Source of the DNA: an uncultured Candidatus Saccharibacteria bacterium
GTDB lineage: Bacteria > Patescibacteriota > JAUYIX01 > CAYMIK01
DNA: 64,000 nt
Assembly (NCBI GenBank): GCA_964390745.1
Contig: CAYMIK010000001.1
Span: forward strand, 48,670-112,669
Direction: 5' to 3'
How positions within the stretch are numbered: the first letter of the stretch is position 1; each line of letters starts with the position of its first letter. The translations under genes and the position numbers were made by a program. The notes beneath the pieces are model-generated. The model did not search any database. It was not told where the DNA came from and saw only the letters and a program-made list of their open reading frames with translations. Below are positions 1,885-58,050 of this stretch, piece by piece.

Positions 1885-2223
1885 TTACGGACGCAACTCG
1901 CGCGGAGCGTCCAGAACGTAAGACAGCCGCGCGAAGCTCTCGATGATCTCGTCGAGTTTCTTGGAGTCAGAAAGAAGGAGCTGTCGCACCTCTTCCGTGT
2001 CCTCCGAGTGCCCGATCGTGTTCGCGGCATGGCCCAGGAATCGATCCTCCAGCCGTTCCGCCGTGATCCTGGACAACTTCAGGGCATCCTGTAGAACGGA
2101 CACGATGCCGTTAGGGTTGTCCGGCGCTTCAGGTTTGCCGGAGTCTGCCGCAGTTTCAGCCCGTGGCAGACGGTCCGACCCCATGAAGAACCGTTTCTTC
2201 GAACTTGGATATTCGAGGCTCAT
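1885..2223 (-). CDS. Hypothetical 112-aa protein, 4th gene of high-GC operon (island A)
   Basis: ORF MSLEYPSSKKRFFMGSDRLPRAETAADSGKPEAPDNP... with strong RBS AAGGAGGAGG 4 nt upstream (revcomp of 2224-2235). High-GC codon usage unlike flanking genes. No recognisable family. Confidence 0.6.
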   Translation of the reverse strand: MSLEYPSSKKRFFMGSDRLPRAETAADSGKPEAPDNPNGIVSVLQDALKLSRITAERLEDRFLGHAANTIGHSEDTEEVRQLLLSDSKKLDEIIESFARLSYVLDAPRELRP

Positions 2224-2235
2224 GCCTCCTCCTTG

Positions 2236-2562
2236 TCAGCGGTTTCTGATCCGCAGAAAGTTCAGCACCATTTGAATGCGCTCATTCCGTTCTGTTCCCT
2301 CGAACGCAGTTGCTGCGAGCTGTGCCTGGAAGCAGGTGTACTCGTGCGTCCCAACCAGGTAGACGATGAAGTCGGGCGCCGTGCTCCACGAAGACACGAG
2401 GTCGATGTGTTGATCGGGTGCCATGCTGAGGATGTTGACGGTCTCCATGATCTCGAGTCCGATTCTCATTCGCGATGCCGCGAAGCTGGACTCGTCGTTG
2501 TCCAACCTCTCGAGCCGTGCCAGGTGCATCTTTGCATCCCGCCTTTTCGAATTGTTGGACAT
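2236..2562 (-). CDS. Hypothetical ~108-aa protein, 3rd gene of island A; start taken at internal Met MSNNSKRR
   Basis: ORF 2236..2625 on the minus strand. The internal ATG at 2560-2562 is preceded by RBS GGAGAGGAA, whereas the upstream Met (2625) has no RBS. High GC. No recognisable family. Confidence 0.55.
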   Translation of the reverse strand: MSNNSKRRDAKMHLARLERLDNDESSFAASRMRIGLEIMETVNILSMAPDQHIDLVSSWSTAPDFIVYLVGTHEYTCFQAQLAATAFEGTERNERIQMVLNFLRIRNR

Positions 2563-2771: not shown

Positions 2772-3137
2772 TTATACGGCACGCACTCGTCCTCTCTGCT
2801 GCCTGAGCCATACCCGGAATGGCCCATAGTACTGCTGGTACAGCAGGTGGCCCGTGCTCCCTGCGAGACGTGGTGCGACGAGGAGAAGGTTATCCTGCGT
2901 CGCGAGATTCTGGAACGAAAGGCGGCTCTTGATGGGCGGGTTGAGAAGCCCAAGTTCCACCGCCACGTACACCGCGAAAAGCGGTGCCCAGTTCTTGGCG
3001 ACGGAGTCCTTTACCCCGCAGATCTCCACGAGATTCCGTGCGATGTCATCGCGGACTCGGGCCAGATGGTCACATCGACCCAGTGCCTCGGGAACGATTG
3101 TTCCCCCTCCAGTTTCGGTGATGTACCGCTGGCTCAT
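2772..3137 (-). CDS. Hypothetical 121-aa protein, 2nd gene of island A
   Basis: ORF MSQRYITETGGGTIVPEALGRCDHLARVRDD... with RBS GGGGGAGGAAG 4 nt upstream. High GC. A hairpin GTGCCGTTATACGGCAC overlaps its stop. No recognisable family. Confidence 0.6.
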   Translation of the reverse strand: MSQRYITETGGGTIVPEALGRCDHLARVRDDIARNLVEICGVKDSVAKNWAPLFAVYVAVELGLLNPPIKSRLSFQNLATQDNLLLVAPRLAGSTGHLLYQQYYGPFRVWLRQQRGRVRAV

Positions 3138-3183
3138 GTCTTCCTCCCCCTGTGAAGGTGTGACTGCTCGGTCTACGAGGGTG

Positions 3184-3531
3184 TTACGACTGCACGGCGA
3201 CTTCCGCCGGGTTCTCTCGCATGTACTTCCTCACGAGCTCCTGACTATCAAAGAAGTCGCTGCTCTCGAGTTTCCAGGCGCACTCCTCGAGCTGGGCGAG
3301 TGAGACTTCGGTATTGGGTGGCAGGTCGTGCCTCCAACGGACGAAGCGATCGACGCTCCGCATCGATGTAAGGCGATCCAGACACGAGTGGGTCTCGAGG
3401 TGGAGCCCAATGCTCGTGCGGGCGGCCTGTCGACGTATTTCGCCCGTCTTGAGCGCCATTCGACCCTTCCACTCCCGGACGAGCTGAACTGCATGCTTCA
3501 AGAAGTTCGGGTTCGTCGTTTCCTGAGTCAC
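3184..3531 (-). CDS. Hypothetical ~115-aa protein, 1st gene of island A (GTG start)
   Basis: ORF (M/V)TQETTNPNFLKHAVQLVREWKG... with RBS GAGGAGG 6 nt upstream of GTG at 3529-3531. High GC. No recognisable family. Confidence 0.55.
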   Translation of the reverse strand: MTQETTNPNFLKHAVQLVREWKGRMALKTGEIRRQAARTSIGLHLETHSCLDRLTSMRSVDRFVRWRHDLPPNTEVSLAQLEECAWKLESSDFFDSQELVRKYMRENPAEVAVQS

Positions 3532-3581
3532 GGTGTCCTCCTCGGCTTGGCCGGTGATTGTGAGGTGGGTCTCGCGGCTTC

Positions 3582-3611
3582 ACTATAGAGGTGACTTTGG
3601 CTGTATGTCAA
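3582..3611 (-). promoter_or_regulatory. Sigma70-like promoter for island A operon (TTGACA-18-TATAGT on minus strand)
   Basis: Revcomp of 3582-3611 reads TTGACAtacagccaaagtcacctcTATAGT, about 50 nt upstream of the first island-A gene. Confidence 0.45.
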
Positions 3612-5240: not shown

Positions 5241-5250
5241 GAGTAGAAAA

Positions 5251-5583: not shown

Positions 5584-5588
5584 GAGCC

Positions 5589-6920: not shown

Positions 6921-6933
6921 CGAATTTGCAAGC

Positions 6934-7380: not shown

Positions 7381-7421
7381 TTTTAGATCAAATTATTGCG
7401 AGATGAAGTATAACAAAAATT

Positions 7422-8012: not shown

Positions 8013-8100
8013 TCAAGAAAATAAGAACCAAGCCGGGCCTTGCGACGTCGCGGATGCGTCGTCGAAAGGTCACCGGCTGGCGCCAAGCTCTTGGGCTTGG

Positions 8101-8523: not shown

Positions 8524-9029
8524 TCGACTCTCCCTGCTCTTGTGCCAAAAGGCCGAAGTCGAGGTGATCCCGACATTCGTAAGAGACTCATCAAGGTATC
8601 ACAAATACCATCTTTTGTCAACCCTCTATTTAACGCATATTTAAGCCATTTTTTAGGGATAATTAATCTTTGGGCCGCACAATGAGTAGTAGCACCAAAG
8701 TCGCAATTATTATGCGAGGAGTCGGGGATTGGGAGGTGAAATAAGGACCTCGAACCCACCCATTAAGCTTTGGCTTAACCAAGCCTAATCCCCAGGGGTG
8801 TGGAAAAAATGGCCAAAAAAGCCCTTCGTGGAGGCCGAAAAATGAGGCTTAAATAAGCCCAAAAACCCCCTTTTTCTTGACATGAGCCGCCACGCATGAT
8901 AACCTTCGACCTAACAATTGCATACAAGGTCAAGGCCTAAAGGTTCATAGTTTATTACCTAATTAACCAACGAACCACGAACCAGAAGGTCTTTCGTACA
9001 ACCCCCGAAAAAGGGATTGTGCACTGTTC

Positions 9030-16540: not shown

Positions 16541-16596
16541 TTTCCCTTAATAAAGCGGAAAAGTCGCCACACCGCGAGAATTGTGGAAAACTGCCC

Positions 16597-16636
16597 TTGA
16601 CAAATCCTTGACAATATATCAGAGACTGGTATACTA
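16597..16636 (+). promoter_or_regulatory. Sigma70-like promoter upstream of rpoB (tandem TTGACA boxes, then TATACT)
   Basis: cccTTGACAaatccTTGACAatatatcagagactggTATACT. About 75-nt leader to rpoB; RBS AAAAAAGGAG before the ATG at 16714. Confidence 0.5.
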
Positions 16637-16713
16637 ACTCCATGCAAGTTTTTTGTGTTATCTAGGCCTCAAAAGCCATTTTTTAGCTCATTTCAAAAAA
16701 GGAGCCTCTTTTT

Positions 16714-19700
16714 ATGTCCAAAAACGTGACCGTTAGCGCAGAGCATCTGCGTAAGTTTTTCACCAAAAATCATGCGGCTGCACCCCTTCCAGCGCTGATC
16801 GAAAACCAAATCACATCATATAACTGGTTCATTAAAGAAGGTTTGCGAGAACTTTTCGACGAAATTACCCCAATTGTGGGTTATACCGGAAAGGACTACG
16901 AACTCCACTTCTTGGATTACTACCTCGACGAACCTAAGTTCGAAGAAACCGTAGCCAAAGAGCGAAACACTACCTACGAGGCTCCGCTTCGCGTACAGGT
17001 TCGCTTGATTAACAAGAAAACCGGCGAAATCAAAGACCAAGAAATTTTCTTGGGCGATTTTCCACTTATGACCGAACGCGGAACGTTCATCGTGAACGGT
17101 GTTGAACGCGTTATTGTATCGCAGCTTATCCGATCTGCTGGTGTGTTCTTTACGGCTGAACATGTTCGCGGTGAAAAGATGTTTGGTGCCAAGGTTATTC
17201 CAAACCGTGGTGCGTGGCTTGAATTTGAAATGGACCAAAACGGCGTTATCTATGTAAAGATCGACCGAAAACGAAAAGTTGCCGCTACTTCATTGTTGCG
17301 CGCCTTTGGTTATGGAAGCGACGAAGAAATTCTTGAACTCTTCAAAGATGTAGACACCAACCCACAACGCCAATTTATTACCAAAACCCTGAAGAAAGAC
17401 TCCGCAAAGACCGAAGAAGAAGGCTTGAAGGAAGTCTACAAGCGTATTCGACCAGGCGATTTGGCAACAGCTGATAACGCACGTTCGATGATTGAATCGA
17501 TGTTCTTTGAGTTCGACCGCTACGACTTCGGTCGTGTTGGTCGATTTATGATCAACCGCAGATTGGGAATCGATGTTGCCAACACCAAAGAAAACCGAGT
17601 GTTGCGACGCGAAGATATTGTATTGATCTTGAAACAAATCATTAAGCTCACTAACGAACAAGGTGAAGCAGACGACATTGACCACTTAGGAAACCGACGA
17701 ATCCGTTCCGTAGGTGAATTGATTCAGAACAAGTTCCGAATTGGTTTGGCACGTATGCAACGAATCGTTGTTGACCGAATGTCTACATTGGATATGGACG
17801 CCGTTGCGCCATCTCAGTTGGTAAACGCACGACCAGTGATTGCTGCTGTAAAGGAATTCTTCACCAACTCACAGTTGTCACAGTTCATGGATCAAACCAA
17901 CCCACTCGCTGAGTTGGAACACAAGCGACGCCTTTCGGCCATGGGACCTGGTGGATTAAGCCGTGAACGCGCAGGATTTGATGTTCGTGACGTGCACCGA
18001 TCTCACTACGGACGCATTTGTCCTATTGCTACCCCAGAAGGTCCAAACATTGGTTTGGTGGGACACTTGTCTTCATTTGCAAAGATTAATGACTACGGAT
18101 TTATCGAAACACCTTTTTCAAAGGTTGTGAAAGCTTTGCCGAACAAGGCCGACAAGACCGAAGGCCGCATTGCATCGGAAGATATTAAGGGCATTGTAAA
18201 AGCTGGTGAAAAGATCACTGAAGCTGCTGCCAAGAAACTCGAAAAAGAAAAAGATTTGGAAGTAATTCCTGTGAAGCCTTTTGTTTCGAGCGAAGTTGTT
18301 CACTTGAACGCCTTTGAAGAAGGGGAATCTATTACCACTCCTGCAACAACACCTATTGATTCTGAAGGATACTTTGTTGATGCGATGATCCCAGCACGTG
18401 TAAAAGGTGAACCGGGACTCGTTGAAGCAGAGCGCGTTGACTATGTTGACGTTGCTGCAAACCAGATCGTTTCTATCTCAACCTCACTTATTCCTTTCTT
18501 GGAACACGACGACGCAAACCGAGCCTTGATGGGTTCGAACATGCAACGCCAGGCTGTTTCTACGCTTGTTCCTCACTCTCCAGTGGTTGGAACCGGTGTT
18601 GAAGGACGAGCTGCTCGAGACTCAGGACAAGTAGTTGTTTCGAAGCATGCTGGTAAGGTTGTAAAAGTTGATTCTGCTCAGATCGTTATTCAGGATGAAA
18701 AGAAAAACCTCCACGAATATCACTTGCGCGTGTTTGATCGATCCAACACTTCAACTTGTATCAATCAGCGACCAATCGTCAATATTGATCAAGAAGTTGA
18801 AGTTGGCGACGTACTTGCTGACGGTGCTTCTACCCAAGACGGAGAATTGGCACTCGGACAGAACATCTTGGTTGCCTACATGGGCTTTGGTGGTGGAAAC
18901 TACGAAGACGCTATCTTGATTTCTGAACGATTGGTTCAGCGAGATGTCTTTAGCTCGATCCACATCGAAGATTATTCTATTGATGTTCGTGATACCAAAC
19001 TTGGACCTGAAGTTGTTACCCGAGATATTCCAAACGTTGGTGAAGAAAAATTGAAAGATCTTACCGAAGAAGGAATTATCCGAATCGGTGCTGAAGTAAA
19101 ATCTGGTGATATCCTTGTTGGAAAGATTACTCCAAAGGGTGAAACAGACTTAACGGCTGAAGAGCGACTCTTGAAGGCAATCTTCGGCGAACAAGCTCGC
19201 GACGTAAAGGATACTTCACTCTATTTGCCTCACGGTGAATATGGAAAAGTTGTTGATGTAAAAATCTTCTCACGAGAAACCGGAGACAAGTTGCCAACCG
19301 GAGTTACAAAGACCATTCAGGTTTCTATTGCTCGTATCCGAAGAATCCAAGTAGGCGACAAGCTTGCTGGACGCCACGGTAACAAGGGTGTTATCTCTCG
19401 AGTTATGGCCGTTGAAGATATGCCACACATGGCTGACGGAACCCCAATCGACTTAATCTTGAACCCACTCGGTGTTGCAAGCCGTATGAACGTAGGACAG
19501 ATTTTAGAATGTGTTCTTGGTTTCGCCGCACACAAACTTGGATACAAAGTTGCTACCCCAGTTTTGGACGGTGTTCCTGAAGATGTTATCAAGGGCGAAC
19601 TTACCAAGGCTGGCTTGCCAACTGATGGAAAGATTCAGCTCTACGATGGCCGAACTGGTGAAGCATTCGACAACAAGACAACCGTTGGAATTTCGTACAT

Positions 19701-35143: not shown

Positions 35144-35224
35144 GTTTTCGCAGCTTTTTACCCCGATTTTAGGCTAAAAAGAGGCTCATTTGATTGTGGA
35201 AACCTTTTTATGCTATAATAGATA

Positions 35225-35335
35225 GGTCAAATTCAGAAAACGAGTGGCCCCAAAGGCCATTTTTGTTTTTCTGCCTCTTTTGAACAACTAGGCAGATGTG
35301 AAAAAAAGCCAAGAAACATTTCTTGGCATCTTTGC
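35225..35335. terminator. Convergent terminators between HExxH gene (+) and gpmI (-)
   Basis: TGGCCCCAAAGGCCA followed by TTTTTGTTTTT for the plus strand. GCCAAGAAATGTTTCTTGGC followed by TTTTTTT, read on the minus strand, for gpmI. Confidence 0.6.
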
Positions 35336-35354
35336 TTTGAGGTGTCTACGTGTG

Positions 35355-36968
35355 TTAGGCGAATATTAAATTCGCTGAATTCTGTGGTACCAGATTTGGA
35401 AGCAGTGAGGTCCCCGACATCTGTGCTGGTTTTGGGACACCCATGATATCTAAAATAGTTGGTGCAACATCGGCCAAAATGCCTGCAGGCGTGAGCCAGC
35501 CTTCATAGACATCATCGAGGTTTTGTGGCTCTTGTAAACCATTGTATGACGAGATCATAATCAGCGGCACAGGGTTCGATGTGTGTTCTTTGTCGATTTG
35601 CCCGGTCTGTGGATCAATCTTTTGTTCGGCGTTTCCATGGTCGCCGGTTATGAGCACAACGCCACCAAGCCCAGTTACAAGTTCGGTAAGTCGTCCGATT
35701 TGTCCATCAAGGGTTTCGAGAGCTTCAATGGTTGCTGGCAAATTTCCCGTGTGGCCAACCATGTCAGGGTTGGCGTAGTTGATGACAACGAAATCGTAGT
35801 ACCCGCGCTTTATCGCATCAAAAGTCTTATCCGTTATCTCGTAGGCGCTCATACCGGGAACGGTGGAGTAGTCAGCAACGGGCTTGGATGGAACCAAGAT
35901 TCTATCTTCGTTCAAGAAGGGTTTTTCTTCGCCACCGTTAAAAAAGTAGGTAACGTGCGCGTACTTTTCTGTTTCGGCAACGTGCAATTGACGGAATCCA
36001 CGTTCTGATAATGTTTTTGCTAAAGGACTTTCTACCTTCGGGTTTGGAAAGGCAACTTGTACTGGCATGGCTTCTTCGTATTCTGTCATCGTGACAAAAT
36101 AGAGAGAGCGCACGTATCGAGCACGATTAAATTTTTCGAAACCCGGAAGCGCAATGGCCTTGGTTAGTTCGCGTGCGCGGTCTGCGCGGAAGTTGAAAAA
36201 CACGGCAGCATCACCATCTTGGATTCTGGTAAGTGGTGCTCCGTTGCTTTGCATGATAACGGTTGGTTCGAGTTGTTCATCAAAAATATTTTGTGCATAA
36301 CTTGAACGAATCGCATCAAGTGGGTCAGTGGCTTGAACACCAACGCCTTCTGCTATGGCATTGTAAGCTTTCTCAACGCGATCCCAGTTGTTGTTTCGGT
36401 CCATCGCAAAGTAGCGTCCGGAAAGTGACGCGATCTGACCCACGCCGATTCGTTTTATTTCCTCCAGAAGTTTTTCGATGTACTGCGAAGCTGAATTGTA
36501 TGGAGTGTCACGGCCGTCAAGAATGGCATGAACAAAAACATTCTTTAAGTCCTGTTGCTTGGCAAATTCCAAAAGGGCGACACAGTGGTCAAAGCTTGCG
36601 TGAACGCCGCCGGGGGAGACGAGACCAATAATATGAAAAGCAGAATTATTTTTTTTGACCTGTTGCGCAGCTTTTTTGAATTCTTTGTTTTCGAAGAATG
36701 ATCCATCGTCAATGGCCATATTGATACGAGGCTCATTTTGATAGAGTATAGTTCCCGCACCAATGGTTTGATGGCCCACTTCGGAGTTTCCCGGGTCGCC
36801 CCAAGGAAGTCCTACGGAAATTCCGGCAGCTTGCAATGAGACACTTGGGAAAAACGAAAAATAGCTCTCCAGATTGGGCATTTTGGCGAGTCGAATAGCG
36901 TTTCCTTCATTTTTTGGTCCACAGCCGAAACCATCCAGGACCATGAGAACGACCGGCTTGGGTCGCAT
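35355..36968 (-). CDS. gpmI: 2,3-bisphosphoglycerate-independent phosphoglycerate mutase
   Basis: MRPKPVVLMVLDGFGCGPK...SEVGHQTIGAG and 537 aa are typical of iPGM. Confidence 0.9.
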   Translation of the reverse strand: MRPKPVVLMVLDGFGCGPKNEGNAIRLAKMPNLESYFSFFPSVSLQAAGISVGLPWGDPGNSEVGHQTIGAGTILYQNEPRINMAIDDGSFFENKEFKKAAQQVKKNNSAFHIIGLVSPGGVHASFDHCVALLEFAKQQDLKNVFVHAILDGRDTPYNSASQYIEKLLEEIKRIGVGQIASLSGRYFAMDRNNNWDRVEKAYNAIAEGVGVQATDPLDAIRSSYAQNIFDEQLEPTVIMQSNGAPLTRIQDGDAAVFFNFRADRARELTKAIALPGFEKFNRARYVRSLYFVTMTEYEEAMPVQVAFPNPKVESPLAKTLSERGFRQLHVAETEKYAHVTYFFNGGEEKPFLNEDRILVPSKPVADYSTVPGMSAYEITDKTFDAIKRGYYDFVVINYANPDMVGHTGNLPATIEALETLDGQIGRLTELVTGLGGVVLITGDHGNAEQKIDPQTGQIDKEHTSNPVPLIMISSYNGLQEPQNLDDVYEGWLTPAGILADVAPTILDIMGVPKPAQMSGTSLLPNLVPQNSANLIFA

Positions 36969-37068
36969 TGTTTTTCCGCTCCTTTCGTGCAGGAATTATA
37001 CCATAAAATAAGCCACTACTTCTGGTGGTCCAAGAAGGGAGAGCCCCACTTGGGTCAGCTCAAAAGCG

Positions 37069-38151
37069 CTATTTCTGCTTCTTCGATAGCAACTTCCTTA
37101 AATCCTTTTTCTTTGTGAGAATGTCAGCCCAAGCATCACCTGATTTTTCGAGTATGTTTGGCACATTTGCCATGGTGAAATCTTTTGGTGAAACGGTTTC
37201 CAGCTGCTTCCAGGAAACCGGCATTGAAACAGTAGCATCTTTGTAGGCGCGGACACTGTAGATAGAAGCGAGCGTCTTTCCTAGAGAGTTTTGGTTGAAG
37301 TCAAAAAAGATTTTTCCACGACGCTTCGGTACAGACCACTCCATTGTAATCTTTTTGGGGTCAGACTGAAGTATAAAGTTTCCAATTTCTCGTGCCATCT
37401 CTCGCGTTTCTTCGTAGGTTACGTCTCGTTTTATTGGAGTGTAGATATGGATGCCAGTTTTTCCAGAAAGCTTCACGAACGGTGTGAGTTGTAGCTGTTT
37501 CATAACATCGTACACTTTGAATGCTACCTCACGAGTTGCTTCAAAAGACTTTTTATTGCGCTCGGGTTCAGCATGGGCCTTCTCTTTGCCCGAATATATA
37601 TAGGGATCCAGGTCAAAGACCATAAAATCTGGATAGTTCAAAATACTTTTCCGAACATTCTCTTTTGAACTGGTAAATTTTGTTGGTTTCTTTGCAGCGT
37701 CGGGCGCACTCGTATTCATTCGCGAGTACCATGGGTGAAAATCAACTATACCAAGCTGAACGAACCACAGAATGGTTTGAAGGTTTTCAACAAGAAAGAA
37801 CGGGAAGTCCGATTCTTTGTCTCCCGAGAACATGTCGAATGTTTTTACGAACTTTGGCACCTCGCTTTGCGGGTGTTTTTGAAAGAACGATAAACCCGTA
37901 ACACCATGCGGATATCGAACTACTGTCACGGGCCGATCTTTGAGGTGGGGTAACAAGTATGGCGAAACATTTGTGTAGTACGCAAGAAGCTCGCGTTTCG
38001 TATACCCCCTGCTTTCTCTGGTCTTGGGCCAAAATGGTTTATCGAGATGTGTCACCTCAATATGATCAGAACCAATCTTTAGCGAGCCGCCCTCATTGGG
38101 CAGCTCTTTGAGTTGTTGTAAGGTCGCTTTTGCAACTTTCTTAGAAGTCAT
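37069..38151 (-). CDS. NHEJ DNA polymerase/primase (LigD polymerase domain, stand-alone)
   Basis: 360 aa. LigD PolDom-like conserved blocks (VTHLDKPFWP, YYTNVSPYLLPHLKDRP, VDFHPW, FDLDP). 4-nt overlap with the upstream ligase gene. Confidence 0.75.
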   Translation of the reverse strand: MTSKKVAKATLQQLKELPNEGGSLKIGSDHIEVTHLDKPFWPKTRESRGYTKRELLAYYTNVSPYLLPHLKDRPVTVVRYPHGVTGLSFFQKHPQSEVPKFVKTFDMFSGDKESDFPFFLVENLQTILWFVQLGIVDFHPWYSRMNTSAPDAAKKPTKFTSSKENVRKSILNYPDFMVFDLDPYIYSGKEKAHAEPERNKKSFEATREVAFKVYDVMKQLQLTPFVKLSGKTGIHIYTPIKRDVTYEETREMAREIGNFILQSDPKKITMEWSVPKRRGKIFFDFNQNSLGKTLASIYSVRAYKDATVSMPVSWKQLETVSPKDFTMANVPNILEKSGDAWADILTKKKDLRKLLSKKQK

Positions 38152-39158
38152 TTTGGCCTTTCGAGGATTACGTCTTTTGGCTTTTTATCAACACGAAGCC
38201 CCACAAAAACGGGCTTGCGAAGTTTCACGTCACGTGTAACTTCGGCATATTTTACCTCGCACACAAACTGCGGGCGCATCCAGTGTGGGCGCGCGGCCAT
38301 GAGTCCGTAAGTTTCAAAGGGGGAGGTTTGACGTTCCAGTTTTCGAAATTTTTTCATGAGGTCCAGAAGCATCTGGTCATTAAAACCCGTACCAACATTT
38401 CCCATGTGGATGAGTTTCTTGGTTTTTGGATCATGTGTTCCAAGAATCAGCGCGCCAAAGACATCGTTTCGAGCACCTTTGCCTTCTGTCCAGCCACAAA
38501 TAATAAATTCTTGTTGGTTATTACCTTTTATCTTTTGCCAGATTCGTGTTCCTGCAACGTATTCGCTCTCGGCATGTTTTGCAACCATTCCTTCGAAACC
38601 TTTTTGCATCATGAGCCTGAAAAACTTCTTTCCTGTTTTTGGAACCGCCGGAACAAATTGCACCAAACCTTTTTTGGGTACGACTCTCTCAAGAAAGTTT
38701 TTTCGCTCAATAAACGGGACACGAACAAAGCTTCGTCCTTCGAAGTAGGGAAGATCAAAGACGAAAAAAGCGACAGGATGCTTGGTGACCAGTGTGGAAA
38801 TATCTTCATCGGTTCCAATGCCAAGCCGTGGTTGAATGTCTTGAAAGCCCAAGATATTCGTATTCGAGATTGCGGTAATCTCGCCGTCCAAAACAAAGTT
38901 TTTGTAAGGAAGTCTGGCGACCGCTGCGGCAATTTCCGGAAACTGATAGGAAATATCATTTCCACGACGCGTAACGAGTGAAACCTTGGGCCCTTTCTTG
39001 AATGCAAGCGCACGAACACCATCAAACTTTACTTCAAAGAAAGTTTCAGCGTCATCAAATGGTTCGGCAATGAGCTGACACAGTGCTGGCACAAAAAACT
39101 TGGGATAAGCGGCCCGTTTTGCAAGAGATGGAGAAAGTTTTTTGTGAGCCACAGCCAT
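38148..39158 (-). CDS. ligD: ATP-dependent DNA ligase (LigD ligase domain, stand-alone)
   Basis: 336 aa. Adenylation motif I EVKFDGVR, an OB-fold domain, and EG(M/I)VAK motif. Confidence 0.8.
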   Translation of the reverse strand: MAVAHKKLSPSLAKRAAYPKFFVPALCQLIAEPFDDAETFFEVKFDGVRALAFKKGPKVSLVTRRGNDISYQFPEIAAAVARLPYKNFVLDGEITAISNTNILGFQDIQPRLGIGTDEDISTLVTKHPVAFFVFDLPYFEGRSFVRVPFIERKNFLERVVPKKGLVQFVPAVPKTGKKFFRLMMQKGFEGMVAKHAESEYVAGTRIWQKIKGNNQQEFIICGWTEGKGARNDVFGALILGTHDPKTKKLIHMGNVGTGFNDQMLLDLMKKFRKLERQTSPFETYGLMAARPHWMRPQFVCEVKYAEVTRDVKLRKPVFVGLRVDKKPKDVILERPK

Positions 39159-39161
39159 ATA

Positions 39162-39941
39162 TTACTTCGCTACCTTTAAGCTTTCTTGCAAGATGCTCAT
39201 TAGGTCACCAACTTCTACCTTCTTTACGCTCTTGGTTTCTTTTGGAACCTTCAATTTGCCATGACGCTTCTTCTCGATGAGTGCCAACAGTCGTTTCTTG
39301 TAGGTGTCAGTATATTTCGTGGCATCAAACTTGTCAGTCATTTGAGAAATCAGCGAGTGCGCCATTTGAATTTCTTTTTTGGAAAATTCTTGTTTCGGTA
39401 TGGAAACAATTTCTTCTACCGGGCGAAGTGTTTGTGCAAAGTGCATCAGTTCCAACATGAGCGCACCCTTGCGTTCCGTGATGGCTGCTAAATGTTGTTT
39501 ATTTCGAATGACTACTTTGGCAATGCCAAGCTTATCAGAATCATGAAGTGCCTTGGCGAGCAATGAATACGCGCGTTTGCCACCAGTGTCTGGCGCAAGA
39601 GCGTAGGGTTTATCAAATAATAGTGGGTCAACCTCTGATCGATCAACGAACTCCAGGATGCTTACACTTTTTGTGAGTTCTAAGTCTGCGCGCTTAAAAT
39701 CTTTATCGTCTAAAATGACGTACTTTCCTTTTTTGTATTCATATCCTCGGACAATTTCGTCCCAAGGAATGGCACGATTGGAGTTTTGTTCCACGCGAGC
39801 AAAGTGGATGGGTTTCAAATCGGTTTTATGCAAAAAATGAAAACGCAAATTTTCTGTTTTTTGAACAGAGTGCAAAGAAACGGGTATGGAGACGAGTCCA
39901 AAACCGATGGTGCCTTTCCAGAGCGGGCGTCCAGACTTCAT
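39162..39941 (-). CDS. ku: Ku-family DNA end-binding protein
   Basis: MKSGRPLWKGTIGFGLVSIPVSLHSV... is a canonical bacterial Ku N-terminus. 259 aa with a lysine-rich tail. 3 nt upstream of the ligD start. Confidence 0.85.
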   Translation of the reverse strand: MKSGRPLWKGTIGFGLVSIPVSLHSVQKTENLRFHFLHKTDLKPIHFARVEQNSNRAIPWDEIVRGYEYKKGKYVILDDKDFKRADLELTKSVSILEFVDRSEVDPLLFDKPYALAPDTGGKRAYSLLAKALHDSDKLGIAKVVIRNKQHLAAITERKGALMLELMHFAQTLRPVEEIVSIPKQEFSKKEIQMAHSLISQMTDKFDATKYTDTYKKRLLALIEKKRHGKLKVPKETKSVKKVEVGDLMSILQESLKVAK

Positions 39942-40024
39942 ACAACCTCAAATTATTACCCTTGTATTCTAGCGCGAATCGAGAAAAATGTCTTGAGGTT
40001 GGCGATTCTCTGAGCGTAGTTATT

Positions 40025-40064
40025 TTGCAAAAAGAATCACACCGGCTCGGGGCAGCGAGCCGGT
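40025..40064 (-). terminator. Rho-independent terminator of island C gene
   Basis: Minus strand reads CACCGGCTCG-ctgccc-CGAGCCGGTG followed by TGATTCTTTTTGC. Confidence 0.7.
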
Positions 40065-40137
40065 GAAGAAGGGATGCGCGGAATTTCGCGCGATAGTACT
40101 GATTGTCATCTGGCCTGCCCGCCAGAGAGCCCAGCTC

Positions 40138-40485
40138 TCAGCCTGTACGCTGCCGCTGCTCGTTCGCCGAGCAGAGCACGGCAACGGTGCCACGCACATC
40201 GCGGAGGTGGGCCTCCGCGTTCGGCATCCTGTCCCTGATCATGAAGATCAGTTCGGGGTAGGCGGGCGTAAGCAGCGTGTCCACCTCGACGATCACGGTC
40301 GTTGCGCCCAGCATGAGCGCAGCGTTGGGACCCTGTGCGAACCGGGTCAGTACTGCCGCCAGGTTCCGTACGAGCTCCGGGCGCGCGTGGCCATCCAAAG
40401 GATCGGATGGGTCCCGGGCGATGCCCCGCAGTGAGAACCGCGGGCATCCATTTTCGAGACTTCCTTCGGGAATCGTGATTTCCAT
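40138..40485 (-). CDS. Hypothetical 115-aa cytoplasmic protein encoded in a high-GC cassette (island C)
   Basis: MEITIPEGSLENGCPRFSLRGIARDPSDPLDGHARPELVRNLAAVLTRFAQGPNAALMLGATTVIVEV... with RBS GGAGGAAA 4 nt before the ATG at 40483-40485. GC3 very high versus neighbours. Possible roadblock/LC7-like fold, a weak guess. Confidence 0.55.
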   Translation of the reverse strand: MEITIPEGSLENGCPRFSLRGIARDPSDPLDGHARPELVRNLAAVLTRFAQGPNAALMLGATTVIVEVDTLLTPAYPELIFMIRDRMPNAEAHLRDVRGTVAVLCSANEQRQRTG

Positions 40486-40513
40486 CGTTTCCTCCAAACA
40501 CGGGGTTTAACTC

Positions 40514-40542
40514 AGTATATGAAGGCATTAGCATCCTGTCAA
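40514..40542 (-). promoter_or_regulatory. Near-consensus sigma70 promoter for island C gene (TTGACA-17-TATACT)
   Basis: Minus strand reads tgttcaTTGACAggatgctaatgccttcaTATACTgagtt, about 25 nt upstream of the RBS. Confidence 0.55.
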
Positions 40543-40611
40543 TGAACACAAAAAGAGTTCAGCGATCATGGTTGCCCAAAAGAAAGATCCAGGGTATAAT
40601 TTACAAACATC

Positions 40612-41709
40612 TTGGGGCTAACTCTTTTCATGATGCAAGCAAAATTTGAACGAAGAAAAATAGTCCGAACCCAAACACTTGGGGAAGTTTTTCGTCGTAC
40701 GCGGTTAGAGCGTGGTTATCAACTCGATGAAGTTGCCAAGCGTACCATGATCCCAGTGGCCTTCGTTGAATATCTGGAAAAAGGGAAGCATGAAGCACTC
40801 CCGGCACGAGTGTACGTGGAAGGCTATGTCAGAAAGGTTGCGGATGCCCTGAACCTCAACGAAAACGCCATGGTGAAAATTTATAAACGAGAAGTGGGAA
40901 TTCAGGAAAACCTCGCCAAAGAACACAAAAAACACGAAAAGACCTCGCGATTTAAAAACCCGCGGTTTGTTGTTCATCCAACGCTCCTTCGAAATGTTGT
41001 GGTTGTCCTCCTTATCTTTGCTGCCGTTGGATACCTCTGGTTTCAGGTCAGTTCGCTTTCAAAGGCTCCACAGATCTCACTCATTCAGCCCAACAGCGAT
41101 ACCCATATTAACACCGACGAACTTCTGGTGCTTGGCAATGTGAGCAAAGGCGCATCGGTAACAATTAACGGGCAGTCAGTTTTTGTGAGTGAATCGGGTG
41201 ATTTCAAGGAAAATCTTACCCTTGAAGAAGGTGCCAATAGCATTCAAGTGCAGGCGCAAAGCCGTCTAGGGAAGGTAACCACTATTACCCGACAGGTGTA
41301 TGCCGATGTTCTCACGAACACAAAAGTAGCAACGACGAAGACTTCTGGCTCATCCGGGTCAACTTCCACCACGAATGGCGTCTCGAATACGCCGGCCGGA
41401 ACACCGATGGTTTTGGGTTCTGAAACAACATCCTCGGCAACGGTTCCTGTGTCTCAAGACGTCAAGGTGGGCGTAGCCATTGCTGATACGGCTACGTGGG
41501 TACAGGTTTCAGTAGATGGGAAACAGGCTTTTTCTGGCACGATGTTGCCTGGTTCTTCAAAGTCTTTCACGGGCAAAGACAACGTCACGATTACGAGCGG
41601 TAAAGCAAACAAGACGCTTATTACGTTCAATGGAAAAAATATCGGCGCGCTCGACTCTTCTGGTGGCGTAGTGCGTGATGTAAAGTTTGATAAGAATACG
41701 AGTTTGTAA
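40612..41709 (+). CDS. RodZ-like cytoskeleton protein (XRE-type HTH, TM, C-terminal DUF4115-like domain)
   Basis: N-terminal HTH (TLGEVFRRTRLERGYQLDEVAKRT), a TM helix (VVVLLIFAAVGYLWF), and a Ser/Thr-rich linker. Likely real start is the ATG at 40630 (MMQAKF); the track starts at the TTG at 40612. Promoter TTGCCC-17-TATAAT at 40578-40601. Confidence 0.65.
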   Translation: MGLTLFMMQAKFERRKIVRTQTLGEVFRRTRLERGYQLDEVAKRTMIPVAFVEYLEKGKHEALPARVYVEGYVRKVADALNLNENAMVKIYKREVGIQENLAKEHKKHEKTSRFKNPRFVVHPTLLRNVVVVLLIFAAVGYLWFQVSSLSKAPQISLIQPNSDTHINTDELLVLGNVSKGASVTINGQSVFVSESGDFKENLTLEEGANSIQVQAQSRLGKVTTITRQVYADVLTNTKVATTKTSGSSGSTSTTNGVSNTPAGTPMVLGSETTSSATVPVSQDVKVGVAIADTATWVQVSVDGKQAFSGTMLPGSSKSFTGKDNVTITSGKANKTLITFNGKNIGALDSSGGVVRDVKFDKNTSL

Positions 41710-42010
41710 ATTGCAAAAACGGACAACTCACCACTGGCGAGATTGCCGGCGGGGAGGTATCTTGTATTTTCCCCGCGATCGCTCTGGCTGTGGCCAATGT
41801 GGCGTGGGCTAGAGCTTGGTCACGGCGGGGCCGAGCAGAGACCCGGGTGGATCACCGGAAGATTCGGGGTGTCTGTCGGCGAGCGTAAGGCGTAGCGGCC
41901 TCTGCGCGACGGGGACTTCGCGAGGTGCGGAGGTGGGCTGCGTTGGGAGCGGAGCCTCGCCGATCCCACTCCCTTGTCGGTTCCGCCGCGTGCGCAAGCC
42001 GGATTCGAAT

Positions 42011-42226
42011 TCAGGGGTTCCCACTGCTTTTCCCTCCGCGAAGGTCATCCATGCTCAGGATGAGTTTGGGGTTTGTTAGGTCCACGGCGGGACCGGCGAA
42101 GCCGAGTCCACCTCGCCCCTCGACCATCTCCCACGGATCTCGCAGGTGGTAGGGGCGAATTCGTACTTCATTCTCGGCTGTGCGTCCAGAGGATTGAGAC
42201 TTTTCTCCAGCGGGCTCGTTCTTCAT
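42011..42226 (-). CDS. Hypothetical 71-aa protein in high-GC island D (possibly the 5' part of a frameshifted longer gene)
   Basis: MKNEPAGEKSQSSGRTAENEVRIRPYHLRDPWEMVEGRGGLGFAGPAVDLTNPKLILSMDDLRGGKSSGNP with strong RBS AAGGAAGAGG 3 nt before ATG. A second ORF in the +1 frame (41809..42048) continues for 79 aa. Confidence 0.4.
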   Translation of the reverse strand: MKNEPAGEKSQSSGRTAENEVRIRPYHLRDPWEMVEGRGGLGFAGPAVDLTNPKLILSMDDLRGGKSSGNP

Positions 42227-42393
42227 GGCCTCTTCCTTCTGACAGCGATGTGAATGATGCCATGGTACACACAAAACCCCTCTTTCGTAAAGGGTACTTT
42301 TCGGCTATAATGAACGTACTTTAATGTCTGCTTTAGACATTTTTAAGGAGGAGCTGGTAGTTTCAAGGAGCGAAGTAATTAAAGAAAGGTTTT

Positions 42394-43504: not shown

Positions 43505-43846
43505 ATGAAAATCGTTCGACGAGACCAAACAAAAAAAGTTCAAAATGGAAAATCCTGTTACGCCTTTGAATATCCTATGGGAGACAAAGAAATCAACGGC
43601 GCAATCATTGGTATTACGGGGAAATACCCTGAGAATGGGCGTCTTGTGAACGAAAAGGTGCGAGAGATGGTGTATGTTATGCAAGGAAAGGGGTCAATAA
43701 CCATTGAGGGAGATTTTATACAACTCCAAGAGGGCGACCTTCTCATGATTGAGCCGGGTGAACGCTATGTTTGGGAAGGAAGTATGCGAATGTTCGTGCC
43801 GTGTGTCCCTGCTTGGTATCCTGAGCAGCATAAGCAGGTGGAATAA
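43505..43846 (+). CDS. Cupin-domain protein (113 aa)
   Basis: The two conserved beta-barrel motifs G(X)5... and ...EPGERYVWEG are typical of a small cupin. Confidence 0.55.
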   Translation: MKIVRRDQTKKVQNGKSCYAFEYPMGDKEINGAIIGITGKYPENGRLVNEKVREMVYVMQGKGSITIEGDFIQLQEGDLLMIEPGERYVWEGSMRMFVPCVPAWYPEQHKQVE

Positions 43847-44325
43847 TGTACAACCATGAACCAAAAGGGTATCACTGCCCGTTTTGTTTGCTTGCCTCCG
43901 GGGTAGAAAACAAAAATGTCCTTACGAAACAAGACGATATTGTGTATCAAGACCGACTCGTAACGGCGTTTATTGCATCACACTGGTGGCCAAAGAATGC
44001 AGGCCACGTAATAATCATTCCCAACAAGCACTTCGAAAATATTTATGATCTCCCCGATAATCTTTCTGCACGAATTCACAAAATAGAACGAATGGTGGCC
44101 ATTGCGTTCAAGGCGGTATACCACTGTGATGGGGTAAGTTCACGACAGCACAATGAGTCGGCTGGAAATCAGGATGTCTGGCATTATCATTTGCATGTGT
44201 TTCCTCGTTATAAAAATGATCAGTTGTACGAACATCATGCACAGAAACAAGTGGCGAACCCGGAAGAAAGAAAGAGATATAGCAAAAAAATTCGGACTTA
44301 CTTTCAAAAGCATCCCGTAAAGTAG
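43846..44325 (+). CDS. HIT-family (histidine triad) protein
   Basis: HVIIIPNKH... then HYHLHVFPR (HxHxHxx triad). 1-nt overlap with the cupin gene. Confidence 0.7.
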   Translation: MYNHEPKGYHCPFCLLASGVENKNVLTKQDDIVYQDRLVTAFIASHWWPKNAGHVIIIPNKHFENIYDLPDNLSARIHKIERMVAIAFKAVYHCDGVSSRQHNESAGNQDVWHYHLHVFPRYKNDQLYEHHAQKQVANPEERKRYSKKIRTYFQKHPVK

Positions 44326-46873: not shown

Positions 46874-47116
46874 TGATTTTCCTTTATGTATAGCTAAAAA
46901 ATAGGGTCCAGACATGGGTGCCCCGCGTATAAAGGCGGGATCTGGAAGCCCCCGCAGCTTATCATTTGGGGTGTTTTTTGTCAAGAACATGGGGCAAATT
47001 CGAAGCCCCCTCGACCACGCAGTGGCGTGAGCGAAGGAGGCCCCGAAGGACAGCCGTTGGCGGTACAACTTCGGGCGCCGTCTTCTGTCTAGGGCCAAGA
47101 AGGCGGCGTTGTGCGG

Positions 47117-47272
47117 CTACTCGAGCCGCTCTGAGAGAGCATGGAAACCGAGCGCGATGACGAGTAGTGTGAATCCGGTGTAGGGCAGGTCGTGGTCGAT
47201 GAACCAGCAACCCACGCCTCCTACTTTCTCGCATGCTCGGTTGAGTGAGCTGCTAAGTGTCAGACGGTCCAT
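47117..47272 (-). CDS. Hypothetical 51-aa small membrane protein, 2nd gene of high-GC island E
   Basis: MDRLTLSSSLNRACEKVGGVGCWFIDHDLPYTGFTLLVIALGFHALSERLE. RBS GAGAGGAG 5 nt before the ATG. One TM segment. Begins 32 nt after the stop of the 185-aa gene. Confidence 0.4.
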   Translation of the reverse strand: MDRLTLSSSLNRACEKVGGVGCWFIDHDLPYTGFTLLVIALGFHALSERLE

Positions 47273-47304
47273 CGAGCTCCTCTCGTATGAGTCAGGATGT
47301 GTAG

Positions 47305-47862
47305 CTAACCTCGTGTCAGAAACAGACCCAGAACGATTGCGAAGGGGACCAGGATCATCGCGATGAGGTTCACGAAGATCCAAAACAGGTCCCTGGCGGT
47401 CAGATAGTTCAGAACAGGCCACCGGCCTCCGAAAAACAACTGATGGAGGCGACAGGCAAAACGATCGTGATGCTTCTCGAGCGGAGTCGCCGTGACGTTG
47501 TCGTCCGGCCAGCCTCGGGGAGCAAGCTTTCTGAAGACTCGCATCTTCACTGCGTTGGTCTGGTTCCTTGCACACCTCGAGAGCTTGAACGGGATTGTGG
47601 AGGCCACGAGCAGCAGAATCCCGATCATGTTGAACGGTCCCATCTTGGGGTAAGGCCGTGGTAGCCGTGTCCCAGGTGGGTCCAGGTGCATCCACCGCGC
47701 GTTGCTCGGATCGTGGGCGTCTTCAAGCAGTGGGATGGGGTTTCCGAATCCCCACGCCATGAAAGCTTCGCAGCCCCATTGAAGGAGGCCGCCTGCGAAC
47801 ATCACGATTCCAGCGAGAGAGTCCAGGAAGGGGGTGCGCTCGTCATGCAGCTTCGCCATCAT
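47305..47862 (-). CDS. Hypothetical 185-aa membrane protein (3 predicted TM helices) in high-GC island E
   Basis: MMAKLHDERTPFLDSLAGIVMFAGGLLQWGCEAFMAWGF...FNMIGILLLVASTIPF...LFWIFVNLIAMILVPFAIVLGLFLTRG. RBS AAAGGAAG upstream. High GC. No recognisable family. Confidence 0.55.
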   Translation of the reverse strand: MMAKLHDERTPFLDSLAGIVMFAGGLLQWGCEAFMAWGFGNPIPLLEDAHDPSNARWMHLDPPGTRLPRPYPKMGPFNMIGILLLVASTIPFKLSRCARNQTNAVKMRVFRKLAPRGWPDDNVTATPLEKHHDRFACRLHQLFFGGRWPVLNYLTARDLFWIFVNLIAMILVPFAIVLGLFLTRG

Positions 47863-47953
47863 GAGGCTTCCTTTCGATCGGCTCGAAGCCGAGGAATGAG
47901 CAAAACTGCCTGCAGTCTAGCAGGAAGGTGTTTTTAAAATCAAGTTTCTTATG

Positions 47954-56108: not shown

Positions 56109-56137
56109 TTGACAAAGTCCTTACAATCGTGTATAAT
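56109..56137 (+). promoter_or_regulatory. Perfect-consensus sigma70 promoter (TTGACA-17-TATAAT) driving island F gene
   Basis: ggggacTTGACAaagtccttacaatcgtgTATAATagcc. RBS GGAGGAA at 56204-56210 precedes the GTG at 56215. Confidence 0.6.
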
Positions 56138-56214: not shown

Positions 56215-57963
56215 GTGGAAAAGCCCAAGCTTACGTGGAGCCAGGCTATGACGATTGGCGCCCTGGCCTGGGCGCAAGAAGTTCAACACGAAGTTCGAAC
56301 TATGACTCAGGAGGTTCTCGAGCGCATCCAGCAGTTTTCGTGGATCGCGCTTCGGGCTAACCTCGGGGTGTTCGCAAAGGCGTTTCTGAAGTACATCGCG
56401 CCTGCGCTCATCCCGCTCGTGCTCATGCTCGTGGTTCCTTCGGCAGTCGGAGGAATCGTGAAGCTGCTCTGTGTGCCCGTCTTCATCGCTGTCGCCCGTT
56501 GGGGCTACAAGCGGTTCAAGGCGGCGTGTTGGGACAAGCCGTGGATTTTTCTTGCGGCTTCGATCGCCATCCCTGTGGTGGCGAGCTTCGGGTTCCGATA
56601 CGCCATCCAGGCGTTCGGGTTCAAGCTCTTGCTCGTCGCGATCCCACTAACCCTGATTCGGTTCATGTGGAGTTTCGGACGTCTCACGCTCGTGCTGTTT
56701 GCGGAGACGTTCGTACTGGTTGCTGTTGTCTTCAACTTCGGCTTCCCGCGCGTCTTCAAGTGCGATGCCCAGAGGGGCGTCGAGCCTCTCGTGACTGGGT
56801 GCACCATCACCCAGAACCACATCCCGTGGAACACGATGACGATGTCGAGTATCCTCGGGGACTGGTTGAAGACGTTGCCCGGGTTTCCGGGTAACTCCAA
56901 CGTCTCCGCTACCTTCCGAGACATTTCGGTGTCTTCGGATGGCAAGGCGTTCTGGGGAGTGGCCGGATGGTCGGACACTCAGGTGGAGAAGTCCGTGGCG
57001 GTCAAGATCGATATCGCGACCCACAAGGTCATCAAGGCGATCTGGATCTATACGCCATTTACGGTTCGCTGCAGCAAAGAGTTCGGTCTCTGTTCTATCG
57101 TTTCGCAGATGGGTAATCGAGTCTATCTGATCGATGACGTCACCAACGAGGTCGTGCGAGAGTACGATCTCAGTGGGGCGATGCCAAGCTACCAGATGGA
57201 AACAGGGAGAGGAGAGATCCTTTTCCTGTGCATGCCCTCCAGCGGTATCGACCGAGAGCGCATTGCGCCGCTCGGACCAGTGGAGCAGGTTCGCTGGGAA
57301 GACACCGGCGCCTCGCTACTTCTGGGTAAGCTGGAACTGGCGACGGGAGTCTTTACGATCCAGCCGGTGAAGGGCAAGTACGACAGCGCCCTCATGGGTA
57401 AGGAGACCATGTTCGCTTCGTATGACCCGGTACATGAGAAGATCATGCTGGGTGCAACAAAGTTGGGCGTTATCGACCTCGGGTCGATGACGTACAGCAA
57501 GGTGCCTGGCAGCGGTCTCACGCAGTTTCTTCCGGGAAACACGACGGCCGGTGCCGTGGTGGATACCCGGACCGGGACCATCTACGCAAACAGACCAGCA
57601 TTCGGCATCTATAGTTACCGCTACGAGAACGGCGTGCTGCGGGTGACGGGGAAGATCTCCGTGGACCTTGGTGGGCGTCTTCTTCTGACCGATCCGCGAC
57701 GCGGATTGGTCTACAGCGCGAACTATGGGCGTGGATTTGTGGAGGTCATCGACCCTACAGTACCTAGCCCAAAGCCGATGCGATGGACGGTGGGTAACAA
57801 CATCCGTAGCCTCAAGCTTGATCTCGGCGAGAGCCCGGATGAAGACTGGCTGTATGTTGCCAGCGCGTTCGGATATACGAGAATCAATCTGAGCGAGGCC
57901 CTCGGGGAGCGTTACCTCCCGAATGTACAGACCGCGTCGAATTCGGATGCGGTCATACGGTGA
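56215..57963 (+). CDS. Hypothetical membrane protein (4-5 N-terminal TM helices) with C-terminal YVTN-like beta-propeller domain, encoded in high-GC island F
   Basis: 583 aa from the GTG at 56215; the track starts at 56200. TM helices IAPALIPLVLMLVVPSAVGGIV, FLAASIAIPVVASFGF, LLLVAIPLTLIRFMW, LTLVLFAETFVLVAVVF. C-terminal repeats resemble YVTN propeller blades (VYLIDDVTNEVVREYDL, LGATKLGVIDLGSMTYSKV, GLVYSANYGRGFVEVIDPTV). High GC. Confidence 0.6.
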   Translation: MEKPKLTWSQAMTIGALAWAQEVQHEVRTMTQEVLERIQQFSWIALRANLGVFAKAFLKYIAPALIPLVLMLVVPSAVGGIVKLLCVPVFIAVARWGYKRFKAACWDKPWIFLAASIAIPVVASFGFRYAIQAFGFKLLLVAIPLTLIRFMWSFGRLTLVLFAETFVLVAVVFNFGFPRVFKCDAQRGVEPLVTGCTITQNHIPWNTMTMSSILGDWLKTLPGFPGNSNVSATFRDISVSSDGKAFWGVAGWSDTQVEKSVAVKIDIATHKVIKAIWIYTPFTVRCSKEFGLCSIVSQMGNRVYLIDDVTNEVVREYDLSGAMPSYQMETGRGEILFLCMPSSGIDRERIAPLGPVEQVRWEDTGASLLLGKLELATGVFTIQPVKGKYDSALMGKETMFASYDPVHEKIMLGATKLGVIDLGSMTYSKVPGSGLTQFLPGNTTAGAVVDTRTGTIYANRPAFGIYSYRYENGVLRVTGKISVDLGGRLLLTDPRRGLVYSANYGRGFVEVIDPTVPSPKPMRWTVGNNIRSLKLDLGESPDEDWLYVASAFGYTRINLSEALGERYLPNVQTASNSDAVIR

Positions 57964-57976
57964 TGGAGGTTCTGTT

Positions 57977-58050
57977 CAGGACGCTGTGTCGTCCTGAATT
58001 CGCCCGGTGCGCACTCTTTTTCGAAGAGAGCGCCCGGGTTTTTCTTTTGC
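57977..58050 (+). terminator. Tandem hairpins plus T-run terminator after island F gene
   Basis: TTCAGGACG-ctgtgt-CGTCCTGAA, then GCGCACTCTT-tttcg-AAGAGAGCGC followed by CCGGGTTTTTCTTTTG. Confidence 0.55.

Follow-up and report, generated by a model that had tools for sequence, protein, structure and literature searches.

An integron gene cassette consists of a promoterless open reading frame (ORF) followed by an attC site, which carries the R''/R' core sites. The Rid fold is a chorismate-mutase-like beta-alpha-beta-alpha-beta(2) arrangement that forms a homotrimer with an inter-subunit active site, in RidA with a conserved catalytic arginine, and the Rid/YjgF and chorismate-mutase-like architecture is used by oligomers that handle small molecules. 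Orphan genes (ORFans) normally match the GC content of their host, and those derived from phages have a lower one (PMC11293555). Here, we describe an orphan gene in a stretch of 64,000 nucleotides from an uncultured Candidatus Saccharibacteria bacterium (contig CAYMIK010000001.1), the whole of which is referred to below as the window. The gene encodes a protein of 115 amino acids (aa) and is located in a GC-rich islet next to the genes for non-homologous end joining (NHEJ). We consider it reasonably likely that this unit is a strain-specific gene cassette, most probably acquired horizontally, and that it forms an independent monocistronic transcription unit.

Signals, composition and probable insertion site of the orphan unit

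The entire orphan unit, which looks complete, is carried on the minus strand at window positions 40542..40029. A preliminary description of this DNA had given its coordinates correctly but had presented it in plus-strand orientation. As that description proposed, the elements of a compact, self-contained unit, namely promoter, ribosome-binding site, coding sequence (CDS) and terminator, were all located in order. The promoter TTGACA-17-TATACT comprises a -35 hexamer (TTGACA, 40542..40537) that matches the sigma-70 consensus and, after a 17-nt spacer, a -10 hexamer (TATACT, 40519..40514), and it scores 11/12 against this consensus. Sites scoring 11/12 or better occurred four times in the entire 64-kb window, as compared to 1.0 +/- 0.9 times in composition-preserving block shuffles. 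Downstream of the predicted transcription start at ~40507, the Shine-Dalgarno (SD) sequence GGAGGAAA (40495..40488), which corresponds to the ribosome-binding site claimed previously, was found 5 nt before the ATG at 40485. The 115-codon CDS (40485..40138, with TGA at 40140..40138) is followed by a 3' untranslated region of ~72 nt (40137..40066) with two extra hairpins (-16.8 and -9.2 kcal/mol) and then by an intrinsic-terminator-like hairpin with a T-tract (40065..40029). The terminator had been described as a GC-rich stem of 10 bp with a U-tract, and our analysis bears this out: eight of the 10 pairs in the stem (40065..40040) are G-C, the loop has 6 nt, the predicted energy is -18.9 kcal/mol, and the T-tract TGATTCTTTTT follows.

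The composition of the islet deviates from that of the host. Its GC content is 0.60-0.66 over ~40010-40518, as compared to 0.40-0.49 on each flank and 0.47 for the whole window; put as percentages, the islet has 62-66% GC and the host ~45%. At the three codon positions of the orphan frame, GC is 0.69/0.49/0.77, a pattern that resembles genes of high-GC genomes; the value at position 3 (GC3), which is ~0.45 in neighboring host genes, agrees with the very high GC3 noted earlier. The predicted product of 12.5 kDa is acidic (isoelectric point 5.6) and contains 12 arginines and no lysine. No transmembrane segment or signal-like N-terminus was predicted, consistent with the cytoplasmic location that had been suggested.

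Searches with the protein sequence did not reveal a homolog. Pfam yielded no family at E <= 1 and NCBIfam none at E <= 10, the best PHROGs match had E = 0.36, and neither PADLOC nor PDB sequences (the latter searched with phmmer) gave anything at a meaningful E-value. There were zero matches in a word-index search of 5.8 billion protein clusters, and an exhaustive HMMER search of 1.84 billion representatives of ~15 billion proteins returned two matches only, P0001 and P0002. We rejected both as homologs, since they are translated tandem repeats whose scores were inflated by 17 and 7 weak repeats, respectively. Annotation-independent (back-translated) scans of viral contigs and of JGI metagenome contigs also gave no match to the orphan, nor did tblastn of phage genomes and plasmid records. 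The 115-aa protein is a true orphan, as had been claimed, and the result that the preliminary description had named as speaking against it, clear homology to an unrelated known family, was not found in Pfam, NCBIfam, PHROGs or PDB.

To place the islet in its genomic context, we used two relatives reached via the RecA 90% cluster, L161 and L162, which are independent assemblies, and a third, L166, reached via a Ku homolog with 54% identity. In L161, iPGM and RodZ are divergent and adjoining, 170 bp apart. Positions 3348-5142 of L161 align to window 35182-37003, and positions 5186-6340 align to window 40539-41708. Window 37004-40538, which contains PolDom, LigD and Ku (~44% GC) as well as the orphan islet, is without a counterpart in L161, where 43 bp are found instead. 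In L166, too, iPGM lies beside RodZ, with the NHEJ operon on the other side of RodZ. Because iPGM and RodZ adjoin in both L161 and L166, this arrangement is probably ancestral and the 3.5-kb block of the window derived. Thus, the genomes compared differ in whether this segment is present at the syntenic site.

Toward RodZ, the window is again homologous to L161 from TCAATGAACACAAAAAGAGTTCA onward. The conserved block includes the palindrome TGAAC-N9-GTTCA (40543..40561), host DNA situated between the orphan -35 hexamer and the rodZ promoter, and then the rodZ promoter itself (TTGCCC-17-TATAAT, 40572..40600), which is also conserved with L161. This block supplies the TTGA of the orphan -35 hexamer, the remaining CA being window-specific DNA. 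We considered whether the entire promoter might be ancestral host DNA and rejected this, as the similarity to L161 beyond TTGA was at the level of chance (641/2000 shuffles were as good). Since similarity beyond TTGA was not demonstrable, the promoter appears to straddle the junction. Separately, the palindrome is present in a single copy in the window, and it may be a regulator-binding site common to both divergent promoters.

In the explanation that we favor, a near-consensus sigma-70-type promoter at the AT-rich edge of the islet, with its -35 hexamer spanning the junction with conserved host DNA, would drive a leader of ~22 nt with a strong SD sequence and then the 115-codon CDS, whose codon usage is that of a high-GC genome and whose product is unlike host proteins. 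The GC-rich hairpin and T-tract would stop the transcript ahead of ku-ligD-polDom, which would use its own promoter-like site. The product would be a small acidic soluble protein, probably a compact two-layer alpha/beta sandwich, and any biochemical role would be accessory, at the level of the strain and outside NHEJ. Its adjacency to Ku would reflect the arrival of both in a single variable intergenic slot, the one that separates iPGM from RodZ.

Several points weigh against this explanation. The putative promoter and terminator are consensus matches only. L161 was the sole relative aligned across the junction, at ~72-74% DNA identity, with the breakpoint placed to a precision of a few bases, and only two outgroups served to polarize insertion against loss. 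For the islet, no flanking direct or inverted repeats, target-site duplication, integrase or donor was found. For a donor from a well-sampled high-GC lineage, homologs would be expected in the databases, yet the searches gave none; without homologs, the orphan could be non-functional cargo.

This last point leads to the main rival, in which the islet is recently captured foreign DNA with an intact ORF that has no function here and is carried as neutral, decaying cargo, whether transcribed or not. The islet was seen in a single genome and has no homologs that would show purifying selection, and both the unameliorated composition and the strong variation of neighboring slots among relatives are what neutral cargo would show. 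However, the ORF is intact and is accompanied by a well-placed strong SD sequence, a near-consensus promoter and a terminator, the product is predicted to be a compact alpha/beta protein rather than disordered, and the remaining GC-rich islets are intact as well and carry similar signals. On balance, we regard neutral cargo as unlikely, and an independent cassette as the better account.

Other GC-rich orphan islets in the window and in relatives

The window carries further islets of this kind. One is located between uvrB and ruvA (1796-3594, minus strand; GC 0.58-0.60) and contains four ORFs (3531..3184, 3137..2772, ~2561..2236 and 2223..1885), each with a strong SD sequence and without a Pfam or PHROGs match; it is preceded by the promoter TTGACA-18-TATAGT (3611..3582, minus strand), which scores 11/12. 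A second (8011-8557) contains a 140-aa ORF with a GC3 of 0.85 and a hydrophobic N-terminal stretch that by eye resembles a membrane anchor, and a third (46902-47931) contains a 185-aa ORF whose product looks like a membrane protein. The islet at 56233-58045 harbors a 587-aa ORF (P0003; 56200..57963) without a Pfam match, preceded by a perfect 12/12 promoter, TTGACA-17-TATAAT (56109..56137). Across these other islets, GC3 of the ORFs ranges from 0.69 to 0.85, and no Pfam or PHROGs match was obtained. The sole match of P0003 in the 5.8 billion clusters was itself, and each of the other islet proteins looked up was a singleton that came from the same NCBI contig. Of the four best sigma-70 matches in the window, three sit at the upstream edges of islets (3611, 40542 and 56109), and the fourth precedes rpoB. 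All islet genes have a strong SD sequence, whereas many host genes have a weak one or none. When the islets were compared with one another, no DNA or protein similarity was detected.

Similar islets are found in relatives. In L161, GC-rich orphans are present at 8459-8665, behind a TTGACA-17-TATACT promoter, and at 15519-17233, and L162 has a GC-rich stretch (5450-8084) that includes adenylosuccinate synthetase. The 185-aa protein of the window has a partial counterpart in L162, where a small ORF located in the same S6-YchF slot is 33% identical to it over 54 aa. A further relative, L163, carries a 198-aa orphan at 4464-5060, with 0.65 GC in a genome of 0.43 GC; its neighbors are an ABC transporter and a CLIPPER-repeat protein, and the syntenic site of L164 lacks it. 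This islet is of the same kind as those of the window.

Two mobile formats were considered for such DNA and rejected. An integron gene cassette does not fit the orphan unit, which has its own promoter and whose 3' hairpins were found by inspection to lack the RYYYAAC/GTTRRRY cores. A mobile element was rejected on the grounds that there are no flanking repeats, no sequence common to the GC-rich islets and no attC-like cores.

A broader proposal is that the islets form a lineage-wide class of small GC-rich, homolog-free and fully equipped expression cassettes that, in this lineage of ~45% GC, occupy the intergenic slots separating core genes, that they derive from an unsampled high-GC pool, possibly with capture by Ku/LigD, and that the 115-aa protein founds a family with a Rid-like fold. 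Each cassette would have a host-type near-consensus promoter, a strong SD sequence, at least one ORF and sometimes a terminator, and the 64-kb window would hold at least five of them, with more in other slots of L161, L162 and L163. The source might be the gene pool of a host or partner organism or a mobile element, and capture might occur without homology at double-strand breaks via the genome's own Ku/LigD, which would explain the absence of repeats and integrases. Taken as a whole, this proposal seems doubtful to us.

By itself, the orphan is one more strain-specific hypothetical gene, with no supported link to NHEJ. Since orphan genes normally match the GC content of their host, a set that lies 15-20 points above it is atypical. 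The pattern is repeated in the window and its relatives, where such orphans (~15-20 GC points above the host) have the best sigma-70 promoters and stronger SD sequences than most host genes. These recurring GC-rich, promoter-equipped orphan islets are an observation worth following, more so than the single orphan. If the pattern reflects a specific route of acquisition or a hidden donor pool, it bears on gene gain in small-genome uncultured bacteria and on the origins of ORFans.

The NHEJ genes and the surrounding region

Pfam matches identified Ku (39941..39162), a LigD ligase-domain protein (39158..38148), a LigD Prim-Pol protein (38151..37069) and iPGM (36968..35355) on the minus strand, and a RodZ-like protein (start at 40630) and RecA (start at 42394) on the plus strand. 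This gene order agrees with the earlier description, in which the orphan unit immediately precedes ku on the same strand and diverges from rodZ. The orphan and ku are separated by 196 nt. A promoter-like site, AAGACA-17-TAGAAT (39994..39966, minus strand; 9/12), is located downstream of the orphan terminator and ahead of the start codon of ku (39941). The predicted terminator and this site suggest that the orphan is separate from ku-ligD transcription.

Whether the orphan might regulate the NHEJ genes or merely lie beside them by coincidence had been left open in the preliminary description. For this question, we inspected four Ku loci by gene content, with Ku identities to the window of 70% (L163), 67% (the two contigs L164 and L165) and 54% (L166); the best Ku match among GTDB representatives was 49% (Verrucomicrobiota), and the best metagenome RecA match was 67-71%. 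L163, L164 and L165 have an operon of Ku, LigD, DUF2127 and Prim-Pol in an unrelated context, with a polysaccharide deacetylase gene directly before it. The L166 operon consists of Ku, LigD with a phosphoesterase domain, Prim-Pol and NUDIX, and a terminator and a promoter, but no orphan, lie upstream of its ku. In none of these four loci was an equivalent small gene found upstream of ku. Similarly, a tblastn search for the orphan in 80 Ku loci of GTDB representatives and in L163-L166 gave no match. As the orphan is without homologs, its co-occurrence with Ku is nil by definition. The NHEJ operon itself is absent from the 18 kb of L161, and its content and position vary among relatives.

If the orphan were an accessory factor or regulator of NHEJ that either shares a transcript with ku-ligD-polDom or controls these genes, its position a short distance upstream of ku on the same strand would be in keeping with this, and so would the absence of both from the iPGM-RodZ slot of L161, as they could have arrived jointly. 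Terminators can leak, and the protein showed weak, non-significant structural similarity to RusA-like resolvases in a viral library. However, the orphan has a GC content of 0.64, as compared to ~0.44 for the NHEJ genes, and this ~20-point gap argues for separate histories despite the common slot. The strong hairpin terminator, the promoter-like site of ku and the lack of a relative of the protein in any of 86 other Ku loci searched also run counter to such a role, as do the different accessory genes (DUF2127 or NUDIX) of the inspected operons and the deacetylase gene that precedes three of the four. The protein is acidic, and no DNA-binding motif was found in it. Thus, nothing in the sequence analysis supports a regulatory or accessory role in NHEJ, which we consider improbable, and the evidence favors coincidental placement.

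Accessory genes embedded in bacterial NHEJ operons offer a further comparison. Like the orphan, DUF2127 in L163/L164 and NUDIX in L166 are small and linked to ku/ligD. However, these genes lie inside the operon or at its end, share its composition and recur in related operons, whereas the orphan is situated outside it, set apart by a terminator of its own, and is compositionally foreign and unique.

Other parts of the neighborhood vary as well, and in this lineage core genes alternate with highly variable slots. The one between recA and the RNHCP-domain gene (window 43505-44325; L161 11155-12846; L162 2306-2755) holds a cupin and a HIT protein in the window, a 563-aa protein without a Pfam match in L161 and a dCMP/cytidine deaminase in L162. 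The region between rodZ and recA (window 41697-42251; L161 9137-9613; L162 137-900) is GC-rich in all three genomes and partly conserved at ~70%; its ORFs are short and differently fragmented in each genome, and a search of Rfam gave nothing even at E <= 10. A small conserved gene on the minus strand that has acquired indels is one candidate for this region, and a structured RNA is another. The recA promoter and 5' leader (42262-42393) differ very little between the window, L161 and L162. They contain a perfect palindrome, AATGTCT-N5-AGACATT (42323-42341), which occurs once in the window and is a candidate operator, for example SOS-box-like. The host genes of the window include rpoB, rpoC, two large CWB2+PKD surface proteins and a 1911-aa protein without a Pfam match, and no tRNA, tmRNA or Rfam family was above threshold in the 64 kb.

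Assembly, reading frame and predicted fold

An assembly artefact, that is, chimeric high-GC DNA in a metagenome-assembled contig, appears very improbable. The islet occurs in one contig only, its composition changes abruptly at each edge, and no homolog was found anywhere, all of which a chimera would show. However, the insert is ~490 bp long and has syntenic DNA of the same genome on both flanks. The signals are phased across its edges, with the -35 hexamer in host DNA and the T-tract at the AT-rich edge. Analogous GC-rich orphan islets are present in three independent assemblies of relatives (L161, L162 and L163), and proteins of the other islets are in the same NCBI record. Synthetic or planted inserts were also rejected, given the presence of islet proteins in the NCBI record and of analogous islets in the independent assemblies of relatives.

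We also examined which frame of the islet is coding. Exact look-ups found a 140-aa protein, P0012, in the public protein collection, but not the 115-aa or 119-aa sequences. The NCBI contig with P0012 is 118,010 bp long and also holds the Ku, RecA, RodZ, iPGM and other islet proteins of the window. P0012 corresponds to an alternative ORF at 40528..40106 (minus strand). In all, three other ORFs of 77 to 147 codons overlap the orphan ORF. ORFs of at least 115 codons arose in 11% of islet shuffles; therefore, length alone is no evidence of coding. The period-3 asymmetry of the 115-codon frame was significant (chi-square 20.7, p = 3e-5). The frames were also scored with a codon model whose training set consisted of the window's remaining GC-rich islet genes; in leave-one-out runs, these genes scored 0.18-0.32 bits/codon in frame. 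In this model, the 115-aa frame scored +18.2 bits (0.16 bits/codon), the 140-aa frame scored -31.9 and the antisense ORF scored +3.4. AlphaFold2 without an alignment gave a predicted template-modeling score (pTM) of 0.50 for the 115-aa product and 0.17 for the 140-aa product, and the single-sequence model of the latter had almost no secondary structure.

It is thus highly improbable that either the 140-aa ORF or an antisense ORF of 123 aa is the true gene. The former is the exact public call, which the 115-aa and 119-aa sequences are not, and several long overlapping ORFs occur in GC-rich DNA. However, GC in the 140-aa frame is out of phase (0.71/0.64/0.50 at positions 1, 2 and 3), and its product is 53% Arg+Gly+Pro+Ala. 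Its ATG (40528) falls within the spacer of the promoter and so precedes the predicted transcription start, and no SD sequence accompanies it. The antisense 123-aa ORF begins at a GTG within the terminator stem and scores well below the 115-aa frame. By codon score, GC phase and pTM, the frame of the preliminary description is better supported than the public call, and we conclude that the 115-aa frame is probably right and the public 140-aa call mis-framed, probably because of the foreign GC-rich composition. Foreign islets of high GC content can lead gene callers astray in low-GC genomes, as appears to have happened in the public record here. Peptides predicted from the 115-aa frame include EITIPEGSLENGCPR and NLAAVLTR.

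In low-GC genomes, a GC-rich stretch between genes is a classic sign of non-coding RNA, and the islet is a sharp intergenic GC peak whose 3' part folds better than shuffles (z = -2.6), but a structured RNA in place of a gene is scarcely credible, given the significant period-3 composition in phase with the SD sequence and ATG, the lack of any Rfam (gathering threshold, then E <= 10), tRNA or tmRNA match at the islet, and the failure to find homologous sequences that would show covariation.

The AlphaFold2 model of the 115-aa protein had a predicted local distance difference test score (pLDDT) of 58.8 and the order beta-beta-alpha-alpha-beta-alpha-beta-beta. A Foldseek comparison, which had been proposed as a check, gave best E-values of 0.1 in PDB and 0.02 in BFVD, none of them significant; OmpA-like domains and FtsZ C-terminal domains were among the lower-listed structural matches and have a two-layer alpha/beta architecture in common. 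The faint resemblance to Roadblock/LC7 that had been noticed earlier did not hold up, and we rejected membership in this (MglB-like) family: there was no match to its Pfam profile (PF03259), and no such structure was among the fold matches listed. What the orphan and this family share is that both are small two-layer alpha/beta proteins.

The model suggests that the orphan probably folds into a compact two-layer alpha/beta sandwich with a Rid/YjgF- or chorismate-mutase-like architecture. In size, the orphan resembles the Rid/YjgF/YER057c/UK114 and AroH chorismate-mutase-like proteins (115 aa as compared to ~115-130 aa), and the order of its secondary structure, predicted as beta-beta-alpha-beta-alpha-beta-beta in a model of low confidence, may be alike as well. 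It differs from Rid/YjgF/UK114 in having no sequence similarity, with 5-14% identity in structural alignments; the Rid family profile PF01042 did not match the orphan, and phmmer against PDB sequences gave no Rid match. Because the confidence of the model is low, the likeness to Rid and chorismate mutase is a low-confidence lead at the level of the fold and not a family assignment.

Among described systems, the orphan also invites comparison with strain-specific ORFans and horizontally acquired genomic islets, for which Vakirlis & Kupczok 2024 (PMC11293555) surveyed species-specific orphan genes. Like these, it is short, found in a single genome and without a detectable homolog, and it occupies a variable slot between core genes with codon usage that is atypical for the host. 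In contrast to them, its GC content is ~18 points above that of the host, it is equipped with a near-consensus promoter, a strong SD sequence and a terminator, and it is one of several such islets within 64 kb.

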